Assembly (NCBI GenBank): GCA_020634035.1 | Contig: JACKCM010000007.1 | Coordinates: forward strand, 42,508 to 106,507 | Length of the DNA: 64,000 nucleotides | Source of the DNA: Candidatus Obscuribacterales bacterium | GTDB taxonomy: Bacteria > Cyanobacteriota > Vampirovibrionia > Obscuribacterales > Obscuribacteraceae | Direction: 5' to 3' | In this document: piece by piece, positions 31,748-34,136 of the stretch | Numbering within the stretch: the stretch's first letter is position 1 | Layout of the letters: each line of letters opens with the position of its first letter | The notes under the pieces: model-generated | What the model was told of the DNA's origin: nothing | The model's input: the letters and a program-made list of their open reading frames with translations, nothing else | Database searches by the model: none | Program-made: the position numbers and the translations under genes

Positions 31748-32254
31748 TCAGCTCTTAGGACCGGCCAGCAGCTCGACCTTTTCTATTTCGACAGACAAAA
31801 TAATGCCCAGCTCTTGCTCCAATGCCTTCATCGATGCGCCAATCTCTTCGTTGATATTCGAGCTTGACTCAATCAGCTCGGATGCGCTCGCTTTAGTACA
31901 GGTTTTACCGACGACGCCTCTCAGTTGGGACAGCGCCACAGAAACCGGATCGTCACCAGCCATTACAAACTTGATCGGATCGACCACCTGAATAGAACAG
32001 GATGCGTTAATTTTTACCTCGCCGGCATCGCAGGTTTGCAGCTCGAGGGACTGCTTTTGAAGCGGTGTGGCTTGCAGGTCTATCTTCTTGTATTTCTCGC
32101 ATATTGGAATGACGAACACCAAGCCGGGACCTCGAAGACCTGCTAACTTCCCCAGTCGGAACACAACAAGGCGCTCGTGGTCTTTGACCATTTTCGTGCC
32201 CGCGCAGATGAGCACAGATATGTACAATACGCCTGCCAATATGATTTCTAGCAT
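31748..32254 (-). CDS. short SPFH/band-7 (stomatin/HflC-like) membrane protein
   Basis: 168 aa; N-terminal TM followed by the SPFH core (VVFRLGKLAGLRGPGLVFVIP). Confidence 0.65.
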   Translation of the reverse strand: MLEIILAGVLYISVLICAGTKMVKDHERLVVFRLGKLAGLRGPGLVFVIPICEKYKKIDLQATPLQKQSLELQTCDAGEVKINASCSIQVVDPIKFVMAGDDPVSVALSQLRGVVGKTCTKASASELIESSSNINEEIGASMKALEQELGIILSVEIEKVELLAGPKS

Positions 32255-32327
32255 TTCTCAGCTTGTTAGACCTGGTACTTCGTCGAGCCAAATTATAATT
32301 GAGCTTGACCGCTACAATATGGATAGT

Positions 32328-34136
32328 TTAGCAGGCGTCGTTCCAGTCCGGTAGGTTCTGATTCTGCTTCAAAAATACCCGCTTCAGTAGAATCGCCTCG
32401 TATAGATTTTCGAAGAAAGCGTCGGAGCGCTCGTCGACCTCCAGGGGCAGACTTGCCAGCGCTTCTCGTCGGAATCTTTCCGCATAGAGTCTGTTCTCGA
32501 CACGCTCACTTCTAAAGTAAGCATTCTGCCACCAGGTCTCCATTCTATCTCTTGCCTCTGCCAGCGTATCAGAGGTAACGAGCTTGTCCGACTTAGCCAG
32601 ATTAACCTTCGCTTTTGTAGGCAGCAGGTTCCAGAGGTCGTTGCAAGGATAAGCCGAAAACGGGAAGCAGTGATCTACCGCAAAGGTTTTCTTTATCGCC
32701 TCTCCGCTCCAGATGCAGTGCGCAGGTATGCCATCCGCTATATTGTTTTGCACTATCGTCCGCACCAGGCTGGTATCACGCTCGGGATCCAGCCACTTGA
32801 GCGCATTCATCAGCTGGTCGAGTCTTATGTCGATGCCTCTCGATTGCGCATATTGCTGCATCAGCTCGCTCCACTCAAATAGCAATGACGGCTCTATCCA
32901 GTGCGCATATCGCACCAATGCATTCCAGATATTCAACGGAATGGTCATCTCTCCGAAGGACCACAGATACTCGCTGGTGATACCGGTGAAGGTGGCGCTG
33001 CCAGCACGATGTGATGCCGTTCTCCCTTCGACTTTGAACACCTGCTCTTCGCTGTTTGGATAGGTTATATAAGTCGCCGGCATCTTGCGGATGGTATCGG
33101 CGGCGTCTTTTAGCGCCCTGTGCAAAGCCCAGGCATTGTCTCCTTCGAACACCCCGCCCACCTTGAGCTCAAAAGGCGAAACTCCGCGCAACTGGTTGAA
33201 AGGCGCTTTGACGAAACCCAGCCCGCGTCGGTCTGTAGCCTGGGGGATATCCTGTTCTACTAGAGGCTTGAACATTCGTATCCAAAAAAGTGCCAGCAGA
33301 CCCATGGGTATGGCGACGGTATCGTCCCCGGTGAATCTAGCAAGCCCGGCGGCGCTGTCAGCGATTCTGACTATGCAGCGCAGAAGCGCCAACTTGTATG
33401 TCGAGGACTTGCGATCTTTGGTGATAATCTGCCTCAAAAGAGGCAGCGCCCCGGTGCCGTCATCGGGCAGCTGAAGCAGCACCGTCTGCCAGGTGACGTC
33501 CTGGCGGCCGAGCCTATCTTCGCCATTCTCTTTGGCGGCGACGATGAGTCCGTGCTGCACCGCCAGCTTCTCGAGCTCCAGCGCGCTAACCGGATAGGTC
33601 GATTCGGCAATGCGATGGGGACCATTACGCAGGCTGATTGCGATAACGCCGCCTGACTTCAGCAGCGATACTAATTTGCGGAACACGCGCGGTCTATCCT
33701 GGGGCTGTATGTGCATCCAGACAGCGCTTAATAAAATAAGGTCGAAAGACATTCCCAACCGGATGGTCTTGTGCAGGTCCGGCATCTTGTCCTGCAGCCA
33801 GTGGATATTCTTGTGGGGATGTCTCTCTTTCGCCTCTTCCATCAGAAGCGGGCTGGGCTCGACCGCCACCACGTCGTATCCATGCTGCGCGAACCAGGCG
33901 GAGTCTCTGCCGGAGCCGGCGCCGATGTCGAGAGTGGTTCTGGTGTTTTGATTTGGAGTTATAAACTTTGTTGATTTGGCTGACTCTGTTAACGCGAAGG
34001 AAATCTTCGCGGGACTAATTCCTGATAGAAAGCGAAATAAACAAGGATGCACATCCTCGAACCGGACGCTTTCGTAGCGCGCCGAAAGCTCTTTGACCTG
34101 AGAATTATATTGGCTGATGACATCGTCGTAGTTCAT
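32328..34136 (-). CDS. fusion protein: TehB-like class-I SAM methyltransferase + central unknown region + C-terminal HNH nuclease
   Basis: The N-terminal motif-I LDIGAGSGRDSAWFAQHGYDVVAVEPS is TehB-like. The C-terminal HNH reads CIWSGEAI...DHCFPFSAYPCNDLWNLLP...N. It is 602 aa. Confidence 0.65.
   Translation of the reverse strand: MNYDDVISQYNSQVKELSARYESVRFEDVHPCLFRFLSGISPAKISFALTESAKSTKFITPNQNTRTTLDIGAGSGRDSAWFAQHGYDVVAVEPSPLLMEEAKERHPHKNIHWLQDKMPDLHKTIRLGMSFDLILLSAVWMHIQPQDRPRVFRKLVSLLKSGGVIAISLRNGPHRIAESTYPVSALELEKLAVQHGLIVAAKENGEDRLGRQDVTWQTVLLQLPDDGTGALPLLRQIITKDRKSSTYKLALLRCIVRIADSAAGLARFTGDDTVAIPMGLLALFWIRMFKPLVEQDIPQATDRRGLGFVKAPFNQLRGVSPFELKVGGVFEGDNAWALHRALKDAADTIRKMPATYITYPNSEEQVFKVEGRTASHRAGSATFTGITSEYLWSFGEMTIPLNIWNALVRYAHWIEPSLLFEWSELMQQYAQSRGIDIRLDQLMNALKWLDPERDTSLVRTIVQNNIADGIPAHCIWSGEAIKKTFAVDHCFPFSAYPCNDLWNLLPTKAKVNLAKSDKLVTSDTLAEARDRMETWWQNAYFRSERVENRLYAERFRREALASLPLEVDERSDAFFENLYEAILLKRVFLKQNQNLPDWNDAC

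Follow-up and report, generated by a model that had tools for sequence, protein, structure and literature searches.

The window analysed here, a stretch of 64,000 nucleotides of contig JACKCM010000007.1 from a Candidatus Obscuribacterales bacterium, carries on its minus strand a gene (32328-34136) for a 602-residue protein in which a class-I S-adenosylmethionine (SAM)-dependent methyltransferase (MTase) is fused to an HNH nuclease. The gene is defined by its open reading frame (ORF), by full-length homologues and by an AlphaFold2 model. A second gene on the same strand, 73 bp downstream of the first, encodes a 168-residue SPFH/Band-7 protein (31748-32254; Band_7 E 2.5e-16 over profile positions 2-146 of 176). 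The original prediction, which had the two ORFs, their coordinates and the 73-bp gap exactly right, regarded the pair as a possible novel system. As judged from its sequences, the fusion represents a real, widespread and uncharacterised family of single-polypeptide enzymes; we are highly confident that the nuclease family stands alone and that the SPFH protein is no part of it.

The MTase head occupies residues 1-223 of the fusion (33468-34136, minus strand, like all parts of the gene). Its SAM loop reads D70-G72-G74-G76-R77-D78, complemented by E93 and D116, and its motif IV is S137-A-V-W-M-H142; residues ~58-178 match the class-I MTase families of Pfam (Methyltransf_25/11/12/23, E 4e-15 to 1e-12; TehB, E 4.9e-8). 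The head contains a lineage-specific insertion of ~25 residues (~41-63; 33948-34016), predicted to be disordered (predicted local distance difference test, pLDDT, <50) and facing gaps in every other member of the family alignment as displayed, with every second row shown. There follow a predicted DNA-binding winged-helix (wH) domain resembling sulfur-binding domains (residues ~224-345; 33102-33467), with the near-invariant residues K243, Y247-K248, R253, P277, W285 and P298-Q299, and an alpha/beta and helical connector (~346-470; 32727-33101), which is conserved family-wide and has no sequence match in Pfam or the PDB. The nuclease domain (~471-520; 32577-32726) is of the beta-beta-alpha-metal, Cas9/HNH_4 type. 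It matches the HNH_4 family of Pfam below threshold at residues 477-519 and contains C474, W476, D488-H489, N503, N512 and K515; as originally claimed, the D-H..N..N residues of a catalytically intact HNH are all kept. The protein ends in a helical bundle (521-602; 32331-32576) delimited from the secondary structure of the model, with W535/W536, E558 and W598 conserved. The AlphaFold2 model of the full-length protein is confident and compact (pLDDT 86, predicted template modelling score 0.82), disorder being confined to the insertion at residues 41-63. Fold searches with the whole protein returned MTase matches only, and residues 224-602 were modelled separately for a fold search of the non-MTase part.

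A homology search with the fusion gave >2,900 matches, the top 120 of which are almost all full length, mostly 550-620 residues long and 43-91% identical to the query; in a scan of one genome per species, relatives were present in at least 566 genomes. The closest ones come from Melainabacteria/Obscuribacterales, and others are found in Alpha-, Beta- and Gammaproteobacteria, Acidobacteriota, Nitrospirota, Desulfobacterota, Myxococcota, Negativicutes and other groups, a patchy phyletic distribution over >10 phyla or classes. When residues 224-602 alone served as query, an exhaustive search yielded 1,230 clusters at 50% identity. In nearly all of these the module begins near residue 200 behind an MTase head, even where the module itself is conserved to only ~32%. 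The joining of MTase and HNH in one protein is therefore real and no assembly artefact, since hundreds of independent genomes show this full-length architecture. Residue conservation was counted on 270 members aligned to the family hidden Markov model (HMM), this count superseding a stricter one made with regular expressions. K243, Y247, K248, P277 and W285 are essentially invariant; the HNH residues D488-H489...N503...N512 are intact in 193 of 198 members and the SAM loop D/E70-G72-G74 in 168 of 174, and several residues outside the SAM pocket (W140, H142, R153, K154 and R170) are also conserved. The six members with a broken SAM loop retain an intact HNH, as does the MTase-less protein P0247. 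A separate class of "module-only" members was considered and rejected, most of its candidates being 5'-truncated gene calls (P0134, P0150); a few proteins, P0247 for example, look genuinely MTase-less. In a distant branch of proteins of ~750 residues (P0233, P0264, P0268), an extra C-terminal Peptidase_S24 domain of the LexA/UmuD type carries the G-D-S-M serine motif, which suggests that members of this branch may be activated by RecA or a DNA-damage signal.

The fusion is a stand-alone, horizontally mobile family without a conserved partner gene. We surveyed 80 genomic loci with flanks of up to 10 kb and classified the 143 nearest neighbours by Pfam and PADLOC. No gene family is conserved beside the fusion: an ABC transporter forms the largest real cluster, with 10 of the 80 loci, and no Pfam or PADLOC family has more than four members among the nearest neighbours. 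The genes found nearby vary from genome to genome, and the fusion is often housed on plasmids, on conjugative elements or in defence islands. In the closest relative (P0001, 91% identity at the protein level), the fusion lies beside McrBC and an integrase; other copies reside in a conjugative element, or next to DUF1998/helicase, SNase and integrase genes, DCD and AAA_21-RloB genes, or Prim-Pol, PLD and GIY-YIG genes, and a Roseomonas plasmid combines the fusion with McrC, a DUF3578 protein and VapBC. A tblastn search of plasmids found nine full-length members. The C-terminal module was absent from all 50,697 phage records searched, and a search of PHROGs gave only generic methyltransferase and weak HNH matches. 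Lineage-specific second nucleases are seen beside two of the fusions: an SNase-family gene begins 2 bp after the fusion in Desulfoferula mesophila (L094:9721-10221), and a PLDc_2 gene ends 26 bp ahead of the fusion in Fundidesulfovibrio terrae (L097:7432-7974).

The proposal that the fusion and the SPFH membrane protein make up a two-gene defence system did not survive this survey. The two genes are co-oriented and the 73-bp gap that separates them contains nothing resembling a terminator or promoter; hence, the SPFH gene may be co-transcribed with the fusion in this strain. The pair is also kept in near-identical strains. However, when co-occurrence was examined in other genomes, synteny was not found outside near-identical strains: no SPFH homologue lies near the fusion in any of the 80 loci, no Band_7 protein is among the 143 nearest neighbours, and the pair is missing from the closest relative (L081), which is 88% identical at the nucleotide level. 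In that relative, blastn shows that the sequence past the fusion gene runs straight into window positions 31111-31168, the 3' end of a convergent 210-residue ORF. The ~1.1-kb stretch carrying the SPFH gene and a 126-residue paralogue of that ORF (31169-32327 in the window) is thus an indel. Exact-sequence look-ups retrieved the fusion-SPFH pairing only where the same strain, or one very close to it, had been sampled again. Seen from its own side, the SPFH protein is an orphan slipin lacking the C-terminal ~90 residues of its normal relatives, with an N-terminal hydrophobic stretch as putative membrane anchor. Beyond one cluster of the same lineage (94% identical), its best relatives are ordinary slipins of 250-290 residues and at most 40% identity. 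We found no remnant of the missing C-terminus downstream, as would be left by a pseudogene, and no PADLOC match for the protein; the adjacent ORFs showed no NfeD-like partner, although no search was aimed at NfeD. Synteny thus rejects the partnership from the sides of both genes. The SPFH gene is a strain-specific insertion and no component of the family's functional unit, and a two-gene system strikes us as extremely improbable. In Pseudoalteromonas xiamenensis (L110:3480-4916), a normal-length SPFH gene with NfeD lies ~2 kb upstream of a nuclease-free relative of the MTase head; two genes on the opposite strand intervene, and the proximity is probably a coincidence.

What, then, might the fusion recognise? 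[quoted passage not shown] The SBD is itself a winged helix (PMC10853773), with the signature H116-R/K117-P-V-L-L and Y164-P165-F-W (PMC6224610). We recovered the SBD sequences of ScoMcrA and SprMcrA with a sparse query built from published residue numbers. A homologue search with an 81-residue ScoMcrA fragment returned one protein of 50 residues, so that no large SBD alignment was available. In the motif comparison, H-R-P-V-L-L-L-W of ScoMcrA and Y-Q-P-I-T-L-L-W of SprMcrA face T-Y247-K248-L-A-L-L-R of the family. The invariant Y247-K248 pair, at the N-terminus of a helix, resembles the H-R/K (ScoMcrA) or Y-Q (SprMcrA) of the sulfur cavity, and the only substitution seen at position 247 is His. 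P298 has the right spacing to be a candidate counterpart of the Y-P motif.

The MTase head offers a separate connection to PT DNA. It is not of the DNA-methyltransferase type, in agreement with the original prediction: its motif IV, SAVWMH, is not a (D/N/S)PP(Y/F/W) motif, no PCQ motif is present, and there are no matches to the N6_Mtase, DNA_methylase or Eco57I families of Pfam. The sequences and folds closest to it are those of small-molecule methyltransferases. The label "TehB-like" holds to the extent that the head is of the small-molecule type and matches TehB in Pfam; membership of the TehB equivalogs does not follow, as the scores fall far under the NCBIfam cut-offs (44.8 versus 218 bits for NF008405; 32.4 versus 219.5 for TIGR00477). 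About 30 plasmid matches to the head alone were obtained with tblastn. MTase-only proteins score 150-219 bits (E 1e-47 to 1e-68) over head-profile positions 3-198 and share with the fusion the N-terminal helices and the SAVWMH, LR-GP and LGR-x-V-x-W motifs. In five of 10 annotated distinct loci these proteins lie inside PT-writer (dnd/ssp) clusters; for comparison, dndCD occurs in ~4.3% and sspBCD in ~3.0% of genomes. In Rhizobium phaseoli, the MTase gene overlaps a DndB-like DGQHR gene by 4 bp and stands beside TusA, FtsK, DndD and DndC; in Rhizobium sp. NXC14, the order is dndB, methyltransferase, dndB, dndC, dndD, dndE and cysteine desulfurase. Sphingopyxis, Sphingomonas and Agrobacterium have a set with cysteine desulfurase and DUF4007 (SspB), divergent from a small ORF followed by the MTase gene, and the Sphingomonas and Agrobacterium sets also hold an ATPase (SspC), a PAPS reductase (SspD) and an FtsK/SpoIIIE gene. 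The small ORF, ~130-150 residues long, abounds in hydrophobic, membrane-like segments, and the Rhizobium MTases have a region homologous to it in their N-terminal ~140 residues. This uncurated class-I MTase family is a new recurrent element of Dnd and Ssp PT loci: NCBIfam has no model specific to the MTase-only proteins or to the small ORF, and the two-part module is not described in the PT literature searched. The module, in which a small hydrophobic protein precedes a class-I MTase, was observed at L101:4560-5579, L106:6596-7597, L103:4555-5585, L108:6528-7600 and L112:6594-7591, with Rhizobium, where the two parts are fused, Sphingopyxis, Sphingomonas and Agrobacterium plasmids as hosts. 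The MTase head recombines with different C-terminal domains. A 376-residue protein of a Streptomyces plasmid (L105:6947-8077) combines the same head with an unrelated C-terminal extension of ~170 residues.

Full-length fusions, too, can be found near PT writers. A search with jackhmmer and Pfam placed them 41-650 bp from dnd or ssp genes in eight of 101 loci (L008, L016, L017/L018, L057, L069, L075 and L099). Only one of these, that of Elioraea thermophila (L075), plausibly represents a functional fusion-writer pair: there the fusion is followed after 41 bp by dndC and then dndD, all on the same strand. In L057 (9352-9702), sspA-B-C-D precede the fusion by 299 bp on the same strand, with sspD stopping at residue 89 of 279; L008 (5527-9947) has neither sspA nor sspB, L016 (11779-12629) retains only fragments of sspC, L017/L018 (9458-9889) only a short sspC-like ORF, and dndB of L069 (4880-5569) has no N-terminus. 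In L057, L008, L016 and L069 the writer cluster is broken off exactly at the junction with the fusion. Genetic conflict could account for these truncations, as could replacement of cassettes or errors of assembly; if an active writer conflicts with a PT-dependent nuclease, a truncated writer beside the fusion is what one would expect. Published SBD-HNH genes are adjacent to dnd in <3.6% of cases, often beside defective clusters.

Two independent lines thus suggest a tie of the fusion to PT DNA: the putative reader has a predicted SBD-like fold, and dnd and ssp genes are linked to the MTase family and to some of the fusions. In the most likely mechanism, the winged helix would dock this restriction-type nuclease on backbone-modified DNA and the HNH would then cleave near the docked PT site, as in ScoMcrA or EcoWI, while the MTase head would either couple the nuclease to SAM or act on sulfur, be it that of the PT group or that of an intermediate. 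The kinship of the head with enzymes that methylate sulfur, selenium or tellurium, together with the sulfur-handling operons in which its relatives occur, makes such a sulfur an attractive putative substrate. Several points weigh against a PT-related role. Homology of the middle domain to SBDs was sought at the sequence level by HMM, hhalign and Pfam, and every search was negative: the family profile scored -2.6 bits against the SBD of ScoMcrA and -1.7 against that of SprMcrA, within the range of 1000 shuffles, hhalign returned a probability of 0.1%, and the domain had no match in Pfam at E<=10. The Y-P motif has no secure counterpart, P277 being 29 residues past K248 compared with 48 in ScoMcrA, and the HNH is Cas9-like, without the CCCC zinc finger that ScoMcrA has. 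For >90% of the fusions, that of the window included, no PT genes lie within 10 kb, and no Dnd or Ssp homologue was found anywhere in the 64-kb window. Where writers are adjacent, this could in part reflect the general clustering of defence genes, and the apparent truncations may be assembly errors, since several of the loci come from metagenome assemblies. Furthermore, a PT-dependent nuclease as such gives no account of what the MTase head does, and the family is known from sequence, gene context and predicted structure alone. On balance, we consider the chances that the fusion functions in PT-related DNA conflict to be even.

A bolder version of this idea is that the MTase head is a phosphorothioate S-methyltransferase, which would transfer the methyl group of SAM to the PT sulfur under the guidance of the SBD-like winged helix. 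The S-methyl phosphotriester formed in this way would be labile, and its breakdown would either break the strand or release the sulfur as methanethiol. In the fusion, MTase and HNH might then jointly destroy the PT-marked DNA of invaders, and the MTase-only form with its small membrane partner in dnd and ssp operons might be the "eraser" behind PT turnover. PT modification is partial and turns over; to our knowledge, the enzyme responsible for this turnover has not been identified. We regard this version as unlikely.

Other explanations of the fusion deserve to be weighed against a PT-dependent one. In the manner of SspE, DndFGH or SspFGH, the fusion might be the PT-sensing partner of a PT writer, with PT marking self DNA and the nuclease attacking unmodified invaders. 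The writers found close by on the same strand in L075 and L057 would fit such an arrangement, as would the MTase-only relatives that are integral to writer clusters. Nevertheless, the great majority of the fusions are orphans, and the adjacent writers are usually incomplete (L057, L008, L016, L017, L018, L069), which counts against a partner since such an effector needs an intact writer. Orphan fusions and truncated neighbouring writers together speak more for a PT-dependent (type IV) role in the manner of ScoMcrA than for an SspE-like one, and we consider the latter rather unlikely. Alternatively, the protein might resemble a type IIG restriction-modification enzyme in which the head methylates host DNA, the HNH cuts unmethylated DNA and the winged helix recognises the sequence. 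MTase and nuclease do share one chain, the SAM loop is conserved, the gene stands alone with no separate DNA methyltransferase nearby, and PADLOC matches the head to its "mad2" methyltransferase profile (E 2e-19). Yet generic alignments derived from the PDB underlie this profile, and MAD2 is only accessory to its own system. The head has no DNA-MTase motif and finds its closest sequences and folds among small-molecule enzymes. The members that keep the HNH with a dead or missing MTase would be lethal if the fusion had to protect its own host, and the same MTase occurs without nuclease inside PT clusters. Self-protection is therefore improbable, and we give a type IIG-like enzyme a low probability.

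The MTase fold might instead serve as a sensor. In a SAM- or stress-gated abortive-infection nuclease, it would monitor SAM or S-adenosylhomocysteine levels, as perturbed for example by phage SAM lyases, and license a non-specific HNH. The SAM-binding residues are kept and no substrate is evident; the model is compact and multi-domain, the LexA/UmuD-type S24 autoprotease of the distant sub-branch suggests activation by a damage signal, and Abi-type neighbours are common. However, gating by SAM would not account for the presence of the MTase family within dnd and ssp operons or for fusions abutting writers, and the conservation of W140, H142, R153, K154 and R170 is as expected of a real substrate site; here again, we see little likelihood. 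It might finally be argued that the fusion is no defence gene at all, the head being a housekeeping or metabolic MTase (for sulfur, selenium or tellurium detoxification or small-molecule methylation) and the DNA-binding and HNH parts serving in regulation or repair. The closest characterised folds are indeed small-molecule methyltransferases, and some neighbours are ordinary (kinase, OmpA, ClpB, lysyl-tRNA synthetase). This is hard to reconcile with the patchy spread of the family, with its carriage on plasmids, conjugative elements and islands, with invariant nuclease residues and with the lack of a conserved metabolic neighbour, and we deem it very unlikely.

Should the PT-related role prove true, the fusion would exemplify a new architecture of PT-reader nuclease, combining a SAM MTase with a highly divergent SBD-like reader; sequence searches would miss such a reader, and published SBD surveys would accordingly undercount PT readers. 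The class-I MTase family would be a recurrent unannotated component of Dnd and Ssp systems, undescribed in the literature searched, and a testable candidate for chemistry on the PT sulfur, be it methylation, erasure or triggered cleavage. If the S-methyl reaction were real, the MTase would be the first enzyme found to methylate a backbone modification of nucleic acids. As the family is annotated merely as "class I SAM-dependent methyltransferase", the nuclease is invisible to defence-system finders, PADLOC giving only the generic match. The fusion itself merits experimental follow-up.

The rest of the island fits the view that the neighbourhood is mobile and rich in defence genes, with AbiE and an insertion sequence in the window. 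The AbiEi/AbiEii pair (34267-36004, plus strand), a separate known system, was recognised by both Pfam and PADLOC (E 5e-92 and 1e-124), and a DDE_Tnp_1_4 transposase (36372-37802) by Pfam, in line with the flank as first described. PADLOC, run on the four neighbours upstream and downstream, reported AbiE only. Three large plus-strand genes encode proteins of 2273 (19796-26617), 822 (28100-30568) and 723 residues (40207-42378) with charged, low-complexity N-termini, which may be candidate secreted effectors; these proteins and the small ORFs downstream of them have no Pfam matches. The 822-residue protein is followed by the 210-residue ORF (30553-31185, plus strand) and its 126-residue paralogue (31288-31668, plus strand), the N-terminal ~95 residues of which are very similar. 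The layout recalls a polymorphic toxin followed by immunity genes, in keeping with the toxin-immunity cassettes that the original prediction placed on this flank, as a candidate only, with no Pfam support. A 119-residue ORF (42371-42730) overlaps the end of the 723-residue gene. A PRiA4_ORF3 protein, similar to ORF-3 of plasmid pRiA4b (39475-40119, plus strand; E 2e-61), and a 539-residue Fic/DOC-domain protein (43141-44760, minus strand) are additional mobile-element or conflict genes of the island, and a second PRiA4_ORF3 gene is found near the fusion in L097. A urease alpha-subunit gene (16362-18080, plus strand) shows ordinary chromosomal metabolism within ~14 kb of the island.

We found no relevant publication when we searched the literature for MTase-HNH systems, which bears out the view that this architecture matches no described system, and the comparison with known enzymes is one of partial likenesses. 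The head resembles TehB, TPMT and halide/thiol methyltransferases; it scores far below their equivalog cut-offs, and its N-terminal helices and SAVWMH, LR-GP and LGR-x-V-x-W motifs are specific to the fusion-head family. Membership in MADS, an operon of up to eight genes, was considered and rejected: the mandatory mad6, mad7 and mad8 are absent and only the generic mad2 profile matches the head. With type IIG/IIL enzymes (MmeI, Eco57I, BpuSI) the fusion has in common a SAM-binding MTase fold and an endonuclease in one protein; it differs from them in having neither a DNA-MTase catalytic motif nor a recognisable target-recognition domain and in including dead-MTase/live-nuclease members in its family. 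A minority of its loci share dnd/ssp linkage with SspE, DndFGH and SspFGH, and with it a nuclease presumably tied to PT status, but the fusion has no NTPase, DUF262, DUF1524 or DndH-like helicase and most copies are orphans. The wH-HNH as well as PUA-wH-HNH type IV enzymes SruGXI, HhiV4I and HtuIII likewise combine a winged helix and an HNH in one stand-alone polypeptide (PMC11037411). A nuclease without a cognate DNA methyltransferase should be modification-dependent, as these enzymes are. The winged helices of the SruGXI type read N6-methyladenine in GATC through a defined pocket (PMC11037411); these enzymes have no MTase head, and no sequence similarity to the fusion was found. Closest in organisation are the SBD-HNH enzymes ScoMcrA, SprMcrA and EcoWI (PDB 5zmm, 7ccd), which share an intact HNH and a stand-alone gene rarely near functional dnd. 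They are set apart by an SBD to which the fusion has no detectable sequence homology, by a Y-P motif without a secure counterpart in it, by the CCCC zinc finger in place of a Cas9/HNH_4-type nuclease, by the lack of the extra ~125-residue connector and, above all, by the lack of an N-terminal class-I SAM methyltransferase. A survey of 1,722 SBD homologues recorded HNH, SRA, kinase, PD-(D/E)XK and unknown domains only and no class-I MTase (PMC10602919). The wH-HNH and SBD-HNH type IV enzymes are established kinds, in neither of which a class-I MTase head has been reported (PMC11037411, PMC7461809, PMC10602919), and the MTase head of the fusion would thus seem to be a new addition to them.

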